From the NCBI GenBank assembly GCA_038153405.1, contig JAYOYH010000082.1:1-15314 (forward strand): a stretch of 15,314 nucleotides of DNA. The letters are read 5' to 3'. The notes beneath the pieces are model-generated. The model saw nothing but the letters and a program-made list of their open reading frames with translations, did no database searches and was not told the DNA's origin. The position numbers were made by a program, and so were the translations under genes. Of the stretch, positions 5,693 to 12,057 are shown piece after piece; within the stretch, counting starts at the first letter, position 1; each line of letters begins with the position of its first letter. The DNA comes from Gemmatimonadota bacterium (GTDB lineage: Bacteria; Latescibacterota; UBA2968; UBA8231).

Positions 5693-6436
5693 ATGAAGGG
5701 ACGCATCCGCCTACAGGTCGTTGAAGACGCTGCCGATGTCGCCCGTATAGCAGCTCAGCACCTGTGCGCGCAAATACGCGAGCGATCCGATGCAGTCTTG
5801 GGTCTGGCAACGGGATCCACTCCAGAAGCTACCTATGCCGAGTTGGTGCGTGCCTACCGAGAGCGACGGCTTTCGCTTGCGCGCGTGCGCAGCGTAAACC
5901 TCGATGAATACCAGGGGCTCGATGGGACGCATGAGCAGAGCTATCGCCACTATATGCAGCACCATCTATTTGAGCACGTCGATATGCTACCGTGGAATGG
6001 GTTGATGTTGGATGGTAACGCCGTCGACGGAGAGGCCGAATGCCGCGCCTACGAAGAGCGTATTCGCGCCTTGGGCGGCGTGGACTTGTGGCTACTAGGC
6101 CTTGGTGGCAACGGGCATATTGCTTTTAACGAACCCGGTTCGGCGCGCGATAGCCGCACGCGCTGCGTGCCGTTATCGGCCGAGACAATTGCCGATAATA
6201 GTCGGTTATTTATCGCGCCTACAGAAGTCCCGCGTCGCGCTTATACAGTGGGTATTGCCACGATCATGGAGGCGCGCCGCGTGCTGCTGCTGGCCACGGG
6301 CGCGCACAAGGCGCGCGCCGTGGCCGCGGCGCTGCGCGGTGAAGAAGGCGCGCACTGTCCGGCCAGTTTTTTGCGAGGACATGCCGATTGCACCTTTCTC
6401 ATCGATCGCCAAGCGGCGTCTCTGTTAGAGAGCTAA
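5693..6436 (+). CDS. nagB: Glucosamine-6-phosphate deaminase
   Basis: Motifs LGLATGSTP, NLDEY, QSYRHYM, LGLGGNGHIAFNEPG and TVGIATIMEA. ATG 5693 gives the typical ~247 aa. Confidence 0.93.
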   Translation: MKGRIRLQVVEDAADVARIAAQHLCAQIRERSDAVLGLATGSTPEATYAELVRAYRERRLSLARVRSVNLDEYQGLDGTHEQSYRHYMQHHLFEHVDMLPWNGLMLDGNAVDGEAECRAYEERIRALGGVDLWLLGLGGNGHIAFNEPGSARDSRTRCVPLSAETIADNSRLFIAPTEVPRRAYTVGIATIMEARRVLLLATGAHKARAVAAALRGEEGAHCPASFLRGHADCTFLIDRQAASLLES

Positions 6437-6439
6437 TTT

Positions 6440-7636
6440 GTGATTTTAGTGCTCAACTGCGGCTCTTCTTCGCTGAAGTACAGCCTATTTGATAGCGCAG
6501 AGCGGGTGTGCGCCCGCGGTTTGGTCGATCGCATTGGTCAGAGCGAGTCGGTCGTAGTGCTCGAGCGGGGCGGTGAACGCCAATCGCACACGGCGGCTAT
6601 TGGCGATCACGGCGAGGCGCTGTCGGCGGTCGTTGGCTTTTTGCAGGAACAGGGACAGGGAGCGAACCTGCTCGAGGGCATCGGTCATCGCGTGGTGCAC
6701 GGCGGCGAGTATTTTGTCGAAGCCGCGCTAATAACGGAAAGCGTGGAGAGCGCAATAGCGGCCTGCACCCCGCTGGCGCCGCTGCACAACCCGGCGGCGT
6801 TAGAGGGACTGCGCGCCGCGCGAAAACTGTTCGACGGCGTTCCACAGGTCGCCGTTTTTGATACTGCGTTCCATCAGACAATGCCGCCGCGCGCCTTTCT
6901 CTACGCCGTGCCACGCGCGCTGCACGCCGAGCAGGGCATTCGCCGCTATGGCTTTCACGGGACCTCGCATCGCTATGTAGCGCAGCGCGCTAGCGAGCTG
7001 TTGGGCGTGGACTTGGACGCGTTGAACCTAATTACTTGCCACTTAGGTAACGGCTGCTCGCTGGCGGCTATTGCCGCGGGTCGTTCGGTCGATACGACGA
7101 TGGGTCTGACGCCGTTGGAAGGCGTGGCGATGGGCACGCGTTCGGGCGACGTCGACCCTGCGCTGATCTTTCATCTGGCCCGCAGTGGTATGCCGTTGGA
7201 TGCAATCGAGAAGATGCTGCTGCACGAGAGCGGTTTGCTCGGCCTGTCCGCTCGTTCGCAGGACGTGCGCGAGGTAGAGGCTGCGGCGTTGGATGGCGAT
7301 CAGGCCGCTCGTGAAGCGTTAGAGGTGTTTACCTACAGAGTGCGCAAAGCAATTGGCGCCTACTGCGCAGTCCTCGGGCGCGTTGATGCGCTGGTATGCA
7401 CCGGAGGGATCGGCGAAAACAGCGCGTTTGTGCGCCTGCATATTCTCGATGGACTCGAACACATGGGTATATGCATCGATCGCGTGCGCAACCGCACGCA
7501 TGCAGGGCGCGAAGGCGATATATCGAACGTGGATTCGCGGGTAAAGATTTTAGTTGTCCCCACAAACGAAGAGCTCGTGATTGCCCGCGAGGTACGCGAA
7601 GTGCTGGCGGGTAGCAGCAGCGCAAGTGCCCTGTGA
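6440..7636 (+). CDS. ackA: Acetate kinase
   Basis: Motifs ILVLNCGSSSLK, GHRVVHGG, APLHNP, VFDTAFHQT, RRYGFHGTSH, CHLGNG, GTRSGD, TGGIGEN and PTNEE. GTG start 3 nt after the nagB stop. Confidence 0.96.
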   Translation: MILVLNCGSSSLKYSLFDSAERVCARGLVDRIGQSESVVVLERGGERQSHTAAIGDHGEALSAVVGFLQEQGQGANLLEGIGHRVVHGGEYFVEAALITESVESAIAACTPLAPLHNPAALEGLRAARKLFDGVPQVAVFDTAFHQTMPPRAFLYAVPRALHAEQGIRRYGFHGTSHRYVAQRASELLGVDLDALNLITCHLGNGCSLAAIAAGRSVDTTMGLTPLEGVAMGTRSGDVDPALIFHLARSGMPLDAIEKMLLHESGLLGLSARSQDVREVEAAALDGDQAAREALEVFTYRVRKAIGAYCAVLGRVDALVCTGGIGENSAFVRLHILDGLEHMGICIDRVRNRTHAGREGDISNVDSRVKILVVPTNEELVIAREVREVLAGSSSASAL

Positions 7637-7658
7637 ATCAATCTACAAGGAGTGCACA

Positions 7659-10004
7659 ATGATAGACGATACGCTAACGGCAGTGGAGCGCAGGGCGCTC
7701 GAAGGTTCGCCCTTTGGCGATCTTTACGCGCCCAGAGAAAAGTTGCGTACGCTGGTCGTCGACAACTTCCCATCGCTGGGCAAACTGGCTGCTATGCGCT
7801 TTATCGAATGGGTGCAGAACAACCCGGGCGGCGTCGTCTCGCTGCCGACGGGTAAAACGCCTGAGCACTTTATTCGTTGGGTAATGTATCTGATGCAGGG
7901 ATGGGGCACAGACGAGGTTGTGCGCGAACTAGAGGCCAACGCAATCGATCCCGCCCCCAAGCCCGATATGGCGTCGCTGCACTTTGTGCAAATCGATGAG
8001 TTCTATCCGATTGGCTCGCAGCAGGGAAACAGCTTCTACTCCTATGTAAATCGATTTTACATCGACGGCTTTGGCTTTTCTCGCGACCGGGCGCTGTTGA
8101 TAAACTGCGACGAAATAGGCCTGCTGCCCGGACAGACTTTGCAGAATTTATGGCCCGATGGCGAAGTCGATCTCTCGCTGCGCTACCGAGCTGCGCAAGG
8201 CGGGCGCGAAAGCGTGCAGCAGCAAGCACTTATGCGCATTGATCAGTGGTGTCAGCAATACGAGCAGCGCATCCGCGACTTGGGCGGAATCGGCTTTTTT
8301 CTCGGCGGGATTGGTCCGGATGGACACATCGGTTTTAACGTGCGCGGATCCGATCACTTTAGCACGACGCGTCTGACGGAGGTCAACTACGAGACGCAGG
8401 CCGCCGCCGCTGGAGATCTCGGTGGTATCGAAGTGGCGCGCAAGCGGCTGGTCATTACGATCGGCTTGGGTACTATTGCTTACGACAAGAGCGCATGCGC
8501 GCTGATTATTGCCGCCGGCGAAGCCAAAGCGGGCATCGTCGCCGACGCCGTTCAGCAGGACAAGGACGTCCGCTATCCGGCTACGGCGCTGCGCGATCTG
8601 CCCGGTGCGCGGTTCTACATAACGCTGGGTGCGGCCAAGCTGCTGGAGCGTCGGCAACTGGACCTGCTGGTGCGGCAGGAGCGCATTGACGACGAGACGG
8701 TCGAGAAGGTAATCGTCGATTTGTCGGTGAGGTTAAAAAAGAAAATAGATGAGCTGACGGCCGCCGACTTTGCCGCCGATGAGTTTGCCCATGCGCTCGT
8801 AGCGCGTCGCCCCGAAAGCGCGCAAGAGCTCGCAATTTCGGTGCGCGATGCATTGATTGCCAAGCTAGAACGCGGCATGCAGACGCTGCAAAACACTCGT
8901 TTTTTGCACACCGAACCGCACCATGACGACCTAATGCTAGGCTATTGGCCCTACATCGTGCGCCACATGCGCCCGGCGAGCAATACGCACTTTTTCGTTT
9001 GCTTAACGGGCGGGTTTACAGCCGTTACAAACCAGTTTATCTGCGATCATATCAGACGCCTTCGCCGTTTTTTGCGCGGTGCTGACTGTGCGCAACTGAT
9101 GCAGGAAGGCTATTTCGACCCCTCCTACAGCGAGGGGCGCAATCGCGATGTCTGGCAGTACCTTGATGGCGTAGCGGCTGACGATGACGAATTGCGCAAC
9201 GAGGGCATGGCGCGCCGCTTCCTGCGCAACTTGATTGACTTGTACGGTCCAATGGAAAGCGAGGCCATCGAGGCGCGTATTGGAGGGCTGGAAGCCTATT
9301 TTGCCGACCACTATCCCGGGCAAAAAGACGAGCCGGAAATACAGCAATTAAAGAGCATGTGTCGCGAATGGGAAGCCGAGTGCACTTGGGGCTATTTGGG
9401 CTGGAACTGCGACAGTGTCAAGCACCTGCGGCTCAGCTTCTACACCGGTGATATCTTCACGCGCGAACCCACGGTGGAAGGCGATGTGGCGCCGGTCATA
9501 GAGTTGCTAACAGAGGTCAATCCCGACATCGTTAGCGTGGCGCTCGACCCCGAGGCCAGCGGGCCGGATACCCACTACAAAGTCCTGCAGGCCATTACGG
9601 AAGCGCTGCGGCGCTATGAGAAATCGAGCGGGCGCTCGGACATCAAGGTGTGGGGCTACCGCAACGTGTGGTTCCGCTTCCACCCGAGCGAGGCCGATAT
9701 TTTTGTGCCGGTATCGCTCAATATGCTGTCCGTTATGCACAGCGCATTTATGAATACGTTTATCTCGCAGCGAGACGCGTCGTTTCCTAGCTACGAACAC
9801 GACGGTCCCTTCTCTGAACTAGCGCGCAGAGTGCAGGTAGATCAGTATCAAAAGCTCAAGACGTGTTTGGGCCGCGAGTGGTTTCAGGAGCACGACAGTC
9901 CGATGATTCGCGCGACGCGCGGGCTGGTATATTTGAAAGAAATGGAATTGAGTGCGTTCTACGAGCACAGCCGCACGCTCATGCTGGCGGCGGAAAATCG
10001 CTGA
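7659..10004 (+). CDS. Large NagB-like deaminase fused to a PIG-L/LmbE-type deacetylase domain (781 aa)
   Basis: AAGGAG SD precedes ATG 7659. The N-terminal half has SLPTGKTP, QIDEFY, GGIGPDGHIGFN and ITIGLGTI. The C-terminal half has EPHHDD (HxDD), DPEASGPDTH and WGYRNVW, as in NagB/PIG-L fusions. Confidence 0.85.
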   Translation: MIDDTLTAVERRALEGSPFGDLYAPREKLRTLVVDNFPSLGKLAAMRFIEWVQNNPGGVVSLPTGKTPEHFIRWVMYLMQGWGTDEVVRELEANAIDPAPKPDMASLHFVQIDEFYPIGSQQGNSFYSYVNRFYIDGFGFSRDRALLINCDEIGLLPGQTLQNLWPDGEVDLSLRYRAAQGGRESVQQQALMRIDQWCQQYEQRIRDLGGIGFFLGGIGPDGHIGFNVRGSDHFSTTRLTEVNYETQAAAAGDLGGIEVARKRLVITIGLGTIAYDKSACALIIAAGEAKAGIVADAVQQDKDVRYPATALRDLPGARFYITLGAAKLLERRQLDLLVRQERIDDETVEKVIVDLSVRLKKKIDELTAADFAADEFAHALVARRPESAQELAISVRDALIAKLERGMQTLQNTRFLHTEPHHDDLMLGYWPYIVRHMRPASNTHFFVCLTGGFTAVTNQFICDHIRRLRRFLRGADCAQLMQEGYFDPSYSEGRNRDVWQYLDGVAADDDELRNEGMARRFLRNLIDLYGPMESEAIEARIGGLEAYFADHYPGQKDEPEIQQLKSMCREWEAECTWGYLGWNCDSVKHLRLSFYTGDIFTREPTVEGDVAPVIELLTEVNPDIVSVALDPEASGPDTHYKVLQAITEALRRYEKSSGRSDIKVWGYRNVWFRFHPSEADIFVPVSLNMLSVMHSAFMNTFISQRDASFPSYEHDGPFSELARRVQVDQYQKLKTCLGREWFQEHDSPMIRATRGLVYLKEMELSAFYEHSRTLMLAAENR

Positions 10005-10019
10005 CCGAGAGGATCGTTT

Positions 10020-10532
10020 ATGCTGAGTGAAAAAGTGCAAGAAGCGCTAAACAAACAGCTCAATGCCGAGTTTTACTCGGCCTATTCTTATTTGTCATTG
10101 GCTTCCTACTTTGAGGATTTAGATCTCAACGGTTTTGCCCACTGGATGAAGATTCAGTACCAAGAGGAGCTGCAGCACGCCGATAAAATCTACACCTATA
10201 TCAATAATCGCGATGGGCGCGTTCAGCTGCATCCCATTGCCGCGCCGCAATTCGACTGGCAGTCGCCGTTGGATGCCTTCAAATTCGCCTTGGGCAACGA
10301 GCGCAAACTGAGTGCGGATATCTACCAAGTCGTCGATATGGCTCTCAGTGAACGCGACCATGCCACGCACGCGTTTATGCAGTGGTTTGTCAACGAGCAG
10401 GTCGAGGAAGAAGCCATTGTGCGCGACATCGTTAGCGATATTGAGCGCGTTATCGAGAGCAAAGACGGTCTGTTTCTCATGGATCGCGACTTGGCCGGAC
10501 GGCAGCCGGACAAGGTAGGCCAAAGCGCCTGA
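10020..10532 (+). CDS. ftnA: Non-heme ferritin
   Basis: 170 aa with LNKQLNAEFYSAYSYL, QEELQHA and FMQWFVNEQVEEE ferroxidase-centre motifs. GAGG SD upstream. Confidence 0.93.
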   Translation: MLSEKVQEALNKQLNAEFYSAYSYLSLASYFEDLDLNGFAHWMKIQYQEELQHADKIYTYINNRDGRVQLHPIAAPQFDWQSPLDAFKFALGNERKLSADIYQVVDMALSERDHATHAFMQWFVNEQVEEEAIVRDIVSDIERVIESKDGLFLMDRDLAGRQPDKVGQSA

Positions 10533-10535
10533 AGC

Positions 10536-10584
10536 TAGTTTTTAAAAAAACTACTTGACGTTTAATTGCTGAATTGAGCATGGT
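10536..10584 (+). promoter_or_regulatory. Putative sigma70-type promoter with AT-rich UP-like palindrome
   Basis: TAGTTTTT-AA-AAAAACTA (10536-10553) lies immediately before a near-consensus -35 TTGACG (10555-10560). A weak -10 candidate CATGGT is at 10579-10584 (18-nt spacer), placing the start near 10591. Confidence 0.55.
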
Positions 10585-10590
10585 TAGAAC

Positions 10591-10898
10591 GAGAGCAGAG
10601 AGTCGAGACTGGGTACCACCGGTCGCCGATCGAAAAGGTCCTCGATTCGCTCTGGAGTCCTAACAGACGCCCCACCGCATCGGGTTAGCATCCAACGCAG
10701 ATGCACCGACCGGGGAAGCACTTCCCAACGGCGTCGATGGCTCGAGTGCGGATCCAACGCGCAGCGGGACCGCGATCGTGAGTGGATAGGCCGAAACGAT
10801 TTTTTAACAGGAGGTCGCATGCCGCCGGACAGGATAGAGCGGCTGTAGCGGTCGGTGGGTGTAGTCAGATCCCAAGCCGCTGCGGCCGCTCTTTTTTT
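10591..10898 (+). ncRNA. Putative ~305-nt structured non-coding RNA, family unassigned
   Basis: Lies between convergent genes and is bounded by a promoter and a terminator. Several nested helices contain G-U pairs that work only on the + strand. No credible long ORF. Confidence 0.65.
10836..10898 (+). terminator. Intrinsic terminator (long hairpin plus U7)
   Basis: 10836-10852 pairs with 10876-10892 (17 bp, 3 G-U pairs), with an inner UGGG/CCCA stem. A T7 run occupies 10892-10898. Confidence 0.8.
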
Positions 10899-12057
10899 AG
10901 CCTATCAGCTCTGCACGCTCCCAGATGCCTTGCTCGTACTCGACGCCTAGGCCTGGTCCGGTTGGCACGTCGATGTAACCGCCATCGCCAATGGTAAAAT
11001 GGGGCGAATACCAATCGGAGTAGGTCACGGGAGCGGCGGGAAATTCTAGGTGGGGTCCGGTGTGTTTGACGACGGAAGCAAAATGTAGAAGGGTGGCTAG
11101 CTCCGGGTTGTGCTTGGGGCTGTGCGGCGTGACGGGTATACCTGCTTCGGCGGCCATCTGCGCCACGCGTAGGGCGCGTATCAATCCACCGTTATACATC
11201 AAGTCAGGTTGAATTACGTCGACGGTGCGCCGTCGTATCATTGCGCGAAAGTGGCCCATATTGCAGTCCTGTTCGCCGCCGGCGACGTCGATGGTGAGAG
11301 CGTCTGCCACAGCCTGCGTCTCCTCGTACTGCTCAAATGGACAGGGTTCTTCGAAAAACGCGCAGCCCAAGTCCTCCATTAGACGCCCCACTTCAATTGC
11401 ACGCCGATGGTCGTAAGAGCCGTTGGCATCTGCGTAGATGGCCACGTTAGTGCCCCACGTCGAACGCGCTAGCTCGAGCACGCTTTCCGCGCGCCCCGGC
11501 AGTGAATCGGCGTTGTTGGCCATGCGTCCACCAATCTTGAGTTTGACTCCTGTGGCCCCGGTTTCGGCAAGGCGTTGACTAAGCCAGGCCACTTCCTCTT
11601 CCGGCGTGGTATCTCGGCGCATGCTCGACAGGTAGATGGGTATGCCCTGGCGATAGGGCGTGCCGATGAGTTGGCCAACGCTGCGTCCGCTGACTTGTCC
11701 GAGCAGATCCAACAGGGCGGCTTCAGCATAGGCGACACAGTTCCACAGCGGCGTGCCCTGATACTTGTAGTTGCTGCCCCAAGTATAGACTTCGTTGACG
11801 AGGATTTCGAGATCGCGCGCGTCGCGGCCGATGAATGCAGGGGCAACGAGTTGAGTAAACATGGGCATTAGGTAGGCCATGCGGCGGTTGGCCGTGGCCA
11901 TGCCAACGGCGCCGTCGGCGCTGGTGGCGCGCACGAGGTAGGTGCCGTCAAAACGCCTCACCTGAAGGTCTTCAACCACTAACGGCGCTGTGGAGATCGA
12001 AGAGAGGTTGAGAAATGCGGGCCAGCAGTGCTGGTCAGAATACGTGGATTCGAGCAT
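10897..12057 (-). CDS. Mandelate racemase/muconate lactonizing enzyme family enolase (probable acid-sugar dehydratase)
   Basis: KLKIG (KxK) motif; metal ligands in DAN, EEP and GEQ; QPD; TPH; VPTGPGLG. AGAGGG SD upstream of ATG 12057. Confidence 0.92.
   Translation of the reverse strand: MLESTYSDQHCWPAFLNLSSISTAPLVVEDLQVRRFDGTYLVRATSADGAVGMATANRRMAYLMPMFTQLVAPAFIGRDARDLEILVNEVYTWGSNYKYQGTPLWNCVAYAEAALLDLLGQVSGRSVGQLIGTPYRQGIPIYLSSMRRDTTPEEEVAWLSQRLAETGATGVKLKIGGRMANNADSLPGRAESVLELARSTWGTNVAIYADANGSYDHRRAIEVGRLMEDLGCAFFEEPCPFEQYEETQAVADALTIDVAGGEQDCNMGHFRAMIRRRTVDVIQPDLMYNGGLIRALRVAQMAAEAGIPVTPHSPKHNPELATLLHFASVVKHTGPHLEFPAAPVTYSDWYSPHFTIGDGGYIDVPTGPGLGVEYEQGIWERAELIG

Follow-up and report, generated by a model that had tools for sequence, protein, structure and literature searches.

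A stand-alone RNA gene with a conserved Met-Pro-Pro micro-ORF in a class of uncultured Latescibacterota and its possible role in ribosome pausing

Introduction

Leader-peptide attenuators such as Salmonella mgtL and E. coli pyrL, the latter including the EF-P/polyproline reporter of PMC5021804, combine a promoter with a short proline-containing ORF that overlaps one arm of a terminator. These are the elements that resemble the RNA gene described here. Dual-function small RNAs such as rnTrpL/peTrpL (10.1101/606483; PMC7968998) and SgrS/SgrT are stand-alone small transcripts with a translated small ORF. The frameshift stem-loops of dnaX and HIV (PMC7282821) and the EF-P-dependent PPX pauses (PMC4140641; PMC13602936) are similar in that a Shine-Dalgarno (SD) sequence lies upstream, slow codons occupy the P site and a stem-loop follows 11-12 nt downstream. 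6S RNA (RF00013) and Ms1 RNA (PMC4191392; PMC9130861) share a rod of 160-200 nt with paired ends and a promoter and terminator of their own, and tmRNA (RF00023) is a structured RNA of similar size that engages ribosomes via a short frame.

Here, we report on an RNA gene that is real, stand-alone and common to a class of uncultured Latescibacterota bacteria. It represents an undescribed RNA gene family that is not simply non-coding and falls into none of the families tested. No description of this RNA was found in the literature; the supplements of the motif screens PMC6429828, PMC8632094 and PMC8040213 could list the motif.

An RNA gene with its own promoter and terminator

The window, i.e., the whole stretch of 15,314 nt that was analyzed (contig JAYOYH010000082.1), originates from a genome labelled G000, the assembly of which comprises 4.86 Mb and is 93% complete. 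Homologous genomes carry working labels of the same kind (G001, G005 and so on), and their loci carry L labels (L010, L160 and so on). In G000, the RNA gene occupies the gap between a ferritin gene and a gene for a member of the enolase superfamily, and the following features were assigned:

10020-10532, + strand, ferritin gene, stop at 10532, upstream neighbour of the RNA gene
10536-10553, + strand, A/T-rich UP-like tract (A/T run 10539-10550), assigned from sequence, near-palindromic in G000 only
10555-10584, + strand, sigma70-type promoter: -35 TTGACG 10555-10560, 18-nt spacer, -10 CATGGT 10579-10584
10591-10898, + strand, RNA gene, start predicted: folded domain, then SD, 9-codon frame and terminator
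10597-10805, + strand, folded domain, including a predicted outer helix P0 (10597-10605/10797-10805) in G000 and G001 only
10620-10793, + strand, conserved core rod: P1 10620-24/10789-93, P2 10627-32/10773-78, P3 10637-41/10767-71, from RNAalifold and pair counts
10668-10733, + strand, distal junction in the predicted fold: P5 10668-71/10730-33 bearing hairpins P6 10680-10709 and P7 10713-10726
10809-10815, + strand, Shine-Dalgarno sequence AGGAGGT, complementary to the 16S 3' end of the same genome
10819-10848, + strand, micro-ORF MPPDRIERL-stop, 9 codons, of which start-Pro-Pro-(Asp/Ile/Gly) is the kept part
10837-10898, + strand, GC-rich hairpin serving as intrinsic terminator in G000: stem 10837-10891, U7 10892-10898
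10897-12057, - strand, enolase-superfamily gene, convergent with the RNA gene, stop end at 10897

The initial annotation of this gap, made from the sequence alone, had pointed to an A/T tract with TTGACG at the 5' end and to a hairpin with U7 at the 3' end, and both are present. The -10 element is weak, the palindrome of the A/T-rich tract is not kept in G001 when the homologues are compared, and a consensus promoter scan of the sequence did not call the promoter of the RNA gene. An equivalent promoter layout occurs in 12 of 14 full-length homologues, 232-281 nt 5' of the start codon, as compared to 6.8% of shuffles, and transcription is predicted to start near 10591. On the + strand, the element folds better than all of 100 shuffles (z -2.6, 0 of 100 reach), whereas the - strand folds no better than shuffles (z -0.17), in agreement with the strand originally deduced from wobble pairs. 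The terminator hairpin of G000 begins at +19 of the micro-ORF, and its 5' arm holds the last three codons and the stop. Its stem shows compensatory changes between homologues, and these persist where the next gene is convergent (G000 versus G005). In G000, the next gene is indeed the convergent enolase-superfamily gene, so that the RNA stands alone there and is no cis leader, just as had been proposed. Directly 5' of the ferritin gene, an operon consisting of nagB, the acetate kinase gene and a gene for a long NagB-like fusion extends from 5696 to 10004 of the window.

The view that the RNA belongs to no known family and is not tmRNA, RNase P RNA or SRP RNA was also borne out. When the window was searched against Rfam 15, a single chance match to a miRNA (E 0.18) was obtained on the terminator, and the same search with 22 homologue loci revealed nothing on the element near a family cut-off. 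Canonical housekeeping RNAs are encoded elsewhere in the carrier genomes (tmRNA, six checked; SRP RNA, 5/5; RNase P RNA, 5/5). In contrast to tmRNA, the RNA described here has no tRNA-like domain and starts at an SD and AUG. The assembly of G000 itself contains no match to tmRNA, RNase P RNA or a full rRNA, though its relatives have them, and many of its tRNAs lie at contig ends; the idea that the RNA is the missing tmRNA or RNase P RNA of G000 was rejected because these are merely unassembled in G000 and the carriers have canonical copies. A riboswitch was dismissed as well, since there is no common downstream gene and the SD lies outside the conserved helices.

Distribution and copy number

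Homologues and covariation had been named at the outset as a check on the RNA gene, and both were found: about 53 of the 132 class genomes carry the gene, with two-sided changes across four families. The tally includes copies found via the 3' module, six genomes with a short leader, and three 5'-deleted copies and one decayed copy (G020, G031, G023, G034). The RNA gene is present once in G000 and in one to three copies per genome elsewhere, so that the MITE or dispersed repeat considered originally was rejected. In three well-sampled genera, the majority of genomes, including closed ones, yielded no copy. Given this patchy distribution and the 5'-deleted or decayed copies, the gene is dispensable.

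Several searches contributed to this picture. A DNA search of 61 genomes gave matches in six, three of them true homologues; the BLAST-level matches in G057 and G054 were due to chance. The micro-ORF pattern matched 13 of 168 genomes of the phylum, with five control matches in other genomes; a second pattern match in G056 sits in a gene. A covariance model of the domain alone yielded 42 matches in 39 of the 132 class genomes (by family, f1 9/75 without G000, f2 20/31, f3 2/3 and f4 7/22) and none in 36 genomes of the phylum outside the class; one match, in G004, was discarded as chance. Thirty matches lay beyond the training set. Among the 27 that were read (the short matches in G107 and the second in G078 being outside the read set), 23 run into an SD, a start codon and Pro-Pro, three reach a start codon without Pro-Pro and one is a false match inside a gene. 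One genus accounts for 17 of the 23, the other six stemming from four more genera.

A scan of 185,579 species genomes, which allowed spacers of 8-16 nt and used a pattern tuned to family f1 that divergent forms would escape, returned 87 matches, 12 of them with a terminator (11 of 80 by terminator filter and one of the other seven by eye). All 12 have the in-frame spacer of 12 nt, and the other 75 spread over all lengths. As the 12 represent genomes already known from the phylum pattern, the species scan adds the absence of indel variants and not new lineages. The architecture was found in none of six pattern matches among 251 genomes around a Gemmatimonadales genome, in none of five single genomes of other groups and in none of 3 and 19 pattern matches on viral contigs; there was no match among 72,556 plasmid or 50,697 phage records. 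A metagenome scan gave three matches, each close to known copies.

The six short-leader genomes keep the promoter, SD, MPPD and hairpin and are devoid of the folded domain. At the short-leader loci L129-L132 and L137 (G035, G123, G017, G122 and G030), the promoter lies 90-136 nt before the MPPD frame, and three to four hairpins with C-rich linkers precede a strong terminator downstream of this frame; two to three tandem units occur in G030. Upstream of the RNA gene at L130, L132 and L137 there is a short gene in which CTA codons are followed by an in-frame TGA; it reads Cys-Thr-Ala and resembles a selenoprotein of the SelT/SelW type.

A folded domain closed by long-range helices

RNAalifold on ten homologous leaders gives nested long-range helices, P1 to P3, which join the ends of a domain of ~175 nt and have a 2x10 loop and an AAAA/G loop between them. 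In a MAFFT alignment, 93.8% of the cells are paired and nine of 21 pairs show two-sided change. The corresponding values are 93.9% and 12 of 21 for 14 sequences aligned to the covariance model, which leans towards the structure. Paired share and two-sided counts were reached by none of 500 shuffles, and slid controls were 31-53% paired. The compensatory changes in the long-range helices span four families. The folded-domain model recovers homologues in three other families, and four loci of two other families that had been left out of training scored E 4e-19 to 7e-9, all four immediately 5' of their micro-ORFs. P7 co-varies, and P5 and P6 differ between genera. Overall, the domain is rod-like, has paired ends and measures ~160-200 nt (typically ~180 nt); for 10597-10806, folding gave a z of -1.8. 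A partial duplicate of the domain is present in G083.

All complementary segments listed in the initial annotation exist in the sequence, yet the architecture derived from them has to be revised. Its 3' domain, closed by 10729-10738 with 10814-10824, is mutually exclusive with the co-varying P1-P3 and was given up. Its 5' three-way junction is what the naked transcript of G000 adopts at minimum energy (-128.7 versus -119.1 kcal/mol for the conserved rod; mean pair probability 0.63 for the junction and 0.06 for the rod), but it is not conserved, as even the nearest homologue is mismatched in its closing helix, and it excludes P1-P3. For G000, the rod is favoured in the predicted fold (0.60-0.65) when the ribosome window is kept unpaired or when the RNA lacks its 3' part. 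The preferred predicted fold of the naked RNA buries the start codon.

A Shine-Dalgarno sequence and a Met-Pro-Pro frame between two helices

The SD and the micro-ORF are absent from the initial annotation, and its term 'non-coding' is not supported, since the SD-start-Pro-Pro frame with its start-codon and synonymous swaps is the most conserved part of the gene. The best-kept block in the alignment of true homologues comprises the SD and ATG CCG CCG, with the terminator's 5' arm following after a spacer of 12 nt. Thirty-eight full-length units were compared. An SD is present at start-codon distance in 37 and decayed in one; the start codon is ATG in 35, GTG in two and TTG in one; codon 2 is CCA (27) or CCG (9), and codon 3 is CCG (15), CCA (15) or CCT (5). 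The fourth residue is most often Ile (17/38, one genus). Three units are without Pro-Pro, and two of these are second paralogues in genomes that also have a Pro-Pro copy. For comparison, just one of 229 long G000 ORFs preceded by GGAGG-ATG starts with MPP. Two trivial reasons for the prolines were discarded: pairing of CCNCC with the GGAGG of the SD, which is weakly predicted, would require a U that is found in 0 of 36 Pro codons at position 2, and pairing with the hairpin arm as an antiterminator is broken by CCA in 27 of 38 units.

The frame is held at fixed distances between two helices. The upstream helix ends 22-28 nt before the start codon in the 38 units, and the next hairpin begins at +16 to +24 from the start, 29 of 38 at +18/19/21/22 (+18/19 in G000), positions that were taken from minimum-energy folds with an uncertainty of ~2 nt. 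The conserved unit is a window of ~43 nt, which is the size of a ribosome footprint. Depending on the copy, the stop codon lies before, inside or after the hairpin, and the hairpin offset stays put. With peptides of 6-32 residues and such variable stops, the peptide itself is probably of no importance. The hairpin that follows the micro-ORF is not the terminator in several lineages, and several genera contain two or three tandem SD-start-hairpin units. In G081-G083 (L237, L238, L239), extra tandem units of SD and start are located 300 nt 5' of the MPP frame; these frames spell Arg-Pro-Asp, some with TTG or GTG starts. Codons 5-6 are often Cys or Phe (U-rich), and second tandem frames retain the Cys codon; this could reflect cysteine sensing or a preference at the RNA level.

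Occurrence in RNA libraries

Five RNA-seq runs from three studies contain the stretch. The runs were picked for containing the element, and their contigs indicate presence, not strand, ends or level. Exact contigs of 136-205 nt inside the element were obtained in all four runs examined, which cover three studies (10625-10829, 10602-10784, 10603-10792 and 10628-10763). Between 7000 and 13000 of the window, no contig of at least 99% identity was located outside 10602-10829 and none on the terminator; the uncovered stretches carry no weight. The ribosomal-protein operon of the same organism is represented by near-identical contigs in three of the four runs (28, 18 and 28 of 30 bins), whereas run X1 gave only short pieces of it.

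A possible function in ribosome pausing

The reading we prefer, and to which we give an even chance, is that of a free-standing RNA gene that likely recruits a ribosome, with a pause predicted at the two prolines, that would act as a parking site and as a gauge of prolyl-tRNA/EF-P status, and that would serve neither as a message for a protein nor as a switch of a neighbouring gene. We infer such a ribosome-pausing RNA from the strength of PPX pauses, from hairpin offsets that match the distance at which the A site is blocked and from CCA as codon 2. In the extracts of PMC13602936 and PMC4140641 considered here, PPD, PPG and PPN rank with the strongest pauses that depend on EF-P, and PPI, which is typical of the large genus, is not a top-ranked triplet. 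According to PMC7282821, a stem-loop 11-12 nt past the P-site codon inhibits binding of tRNA to the A site; this distance corresponds to +18/19 for Pro2 and +21/22 for Pro3, the positions of the 29 predicted hairpins mentioned above. CCA, the commonest second codon in the micro-ORFs, is described in PMC8129111 as a pause-tuning Pro codon in E. coli.

Mechanistically, the folded domain and the GC-rich hairpin would flank a ribosome-sized window with a strong SD and Met-Pro-Pro, and the swaps between ATG, GTG and TTG together with the synonymous Pro codons suggest that the micro-ORF is translated. Two brakes would then coincide, slow Pro-Pro bond formation and a stem-loop that would reach the mRNA entry channel once the P site is occupied by Pro2 (for a hairpin at +18/19) or Pro3 (for one at +21/22). 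The folded domain would come to lie directly to the rear of the bound small subunit, where contacts with the subunit or a partner protein are conceivable. The dwell of the ribosome could set the fold or lifetime of the RNA, just as holding the window open shifts the predicted G000 fold to the rod. It may be short, because EF-P normally relieves such pauses and is encoded in G000, and parking would matter only if the RNA is very abundant, since one RNA per gene copy holds just one to three ribosomes. Unlike frameshift pause sites, the RNA gene has neither a slippery site nor a long protein, and the predicted pause signal is its entire coding content. Our guess is that the physiological output is in slow growth or stress.

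Alternative functions

A rather unlikely but serious alternative is that the function resides in the folded domain, which would bind a protein, for example RNA polymerase as an analogue of 6S or Ms1, and that the micro-ORF and hairpin form a trailer tuning maturation or decay. The size, rod shape and paired ends of the domain fit, a search of 11 carrier genomes, some of them closed, did not find Rfam 6S in any, and the RNA contigs cover the domain, those of two studies beginning at 10602/10603, a weak hint. A gene for an RpoS-like group-2 sigma factor adjoins the RNA in four genera from three families and a ferritin gene in five genera. These recurring neighbours may hint at a stress context. 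Genes for CBS-domain proteins and bifunctional nucleases recur, too, and the sigma-factor/ferritin context is seen at L010, L011, L128, L142, L226 and L229. 6S RNA is characterized by a large two-sided central bubble. In contrast, the two-sided bubble never exceeds 8x7 nt in 38 predicted folds of the domain, and the 6S and Ms1 models give no score, even when permissive E-values are allowed. Unlike 6S and Ms1, the gene is patchy in occurrence and has an obligatory SD-micro-ORF trailer. Moreover, the short-leader subtype lacks the domain altogether, making the ribosome module and not the domain the common denominator.

Less probable still is a translation-coupled attenuator of the pyrL/mgtL type, in which fast translation of Pro-Pro would melt the 5' arm of the terminator and cause read-through, slow translation would let the terminator form, and many copies would have lost their target. 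In G000-type copies the stop codon does lie in the terminator 5' arm, and in four genomes of family f2 a CBS-domain gene follows on the same strand 40-100 nt past the terminator. In the reporter of PMC5021804, a polyproline stall before the pyrL terminator raises termination without EF-P. However, the next gene is convergent at about 26 of 40 loci (counted with a longest-ORF heuristic, two known mis-calls cancelling each other), which speaks against a general attenuator, and the compensatory terminator changes are kept there. In one genus with 17 genomes, both flanking genes are on the opposite strand at nearly all loci. Where neighbours do share the strand, they are mutually unrelated (epimerase, FAD oxidoreductase, transhydrogenase-type protein, 2-hydroxyacid dehydrogenase, ABC ATPase, sigma factor, CBS protein), and several have a promoter-like site of their own. 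In G079, a ZTP riboswitch (Rfam RF01750, 53.3 bits; L160:1682-1769) directly behind the terminator of the element precedes a 2-hydroxyacid dehydrogenase gene, and a similar sequence is present in L159 (G078). Apart from the four genomes with the CBS gene, the RNA gene differs from leader-peptide attenuators by the lack of a constant downstream gene; in addition, it contains an upstream co-varying domain of 180 nt and keeps its hairpin offset even where the hairpin is not the terminator.

That the RNA is an mRNA encoding a small peptide for signalling or regulation behind a long structured leader appears very improbable to us. The strong SD, the real start codons and a Cys, found at position 5 in 19 of 38 units and at 5 or 6 in additional copies, would be in favour of such a message, but nothing past residue 4 is kept across genera, and neither a modifying enzyme nor a transporter recurs constantly next to the gene. 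The Arg at position 8 results from the CGG of the hairpin, which persists past an earlier stop in G042, G081, G082 and G083. Dual-function small RNAs differ in the same respect, as here the peptide is kept for four residues only; furthermore, no conserved single-stranded seed was seen and most of the transcript is locked in long-range helices. Finally, a non-functional or selfish remnant, be it a small mobile element or a chance structure, is the least probable of all and already largely refuted, because varying neighbours, patchy presence and up to three paralogues in one genome are outweighed by the single copy in G000, compensatory changes across four families, synteny with ferritin in several genera and the negative plasmid, phage and viral searches.

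Significance

Returning to the ribosome-pausing RNA, a bolder version, which we regard as possible rather than probable, is that it exemplifies a new kind of RNA gene for holding ribosomes: the domain would dock to the rear of the small subunit, and the ribosome would be frozen at its first two peptide bonds by Met-Pro-Pro together with a hairpin at a precise distance, resulting in a ribosome store or an EF-P/proline gauge. Tandem landing pads would allow its expansion, and it may have arisen in other phyla, too. To our knowledge, the stall peptides described so far act on a gene downstream of them, and the factors known to store ribosomes are proteins. The host is uncultured; the RNA gene is short and is available in more than 50 natural variants, including Pro-Pro-less, domain-less and tandem forms. 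If the ribosome-pausing reading is true, a dedicated RNA gene that occurs across a class and keeps a ribosome-sized window in which two pause signals coincide, but has no target gene and no conserved product, would constitute a new way to sense or buffer translation.
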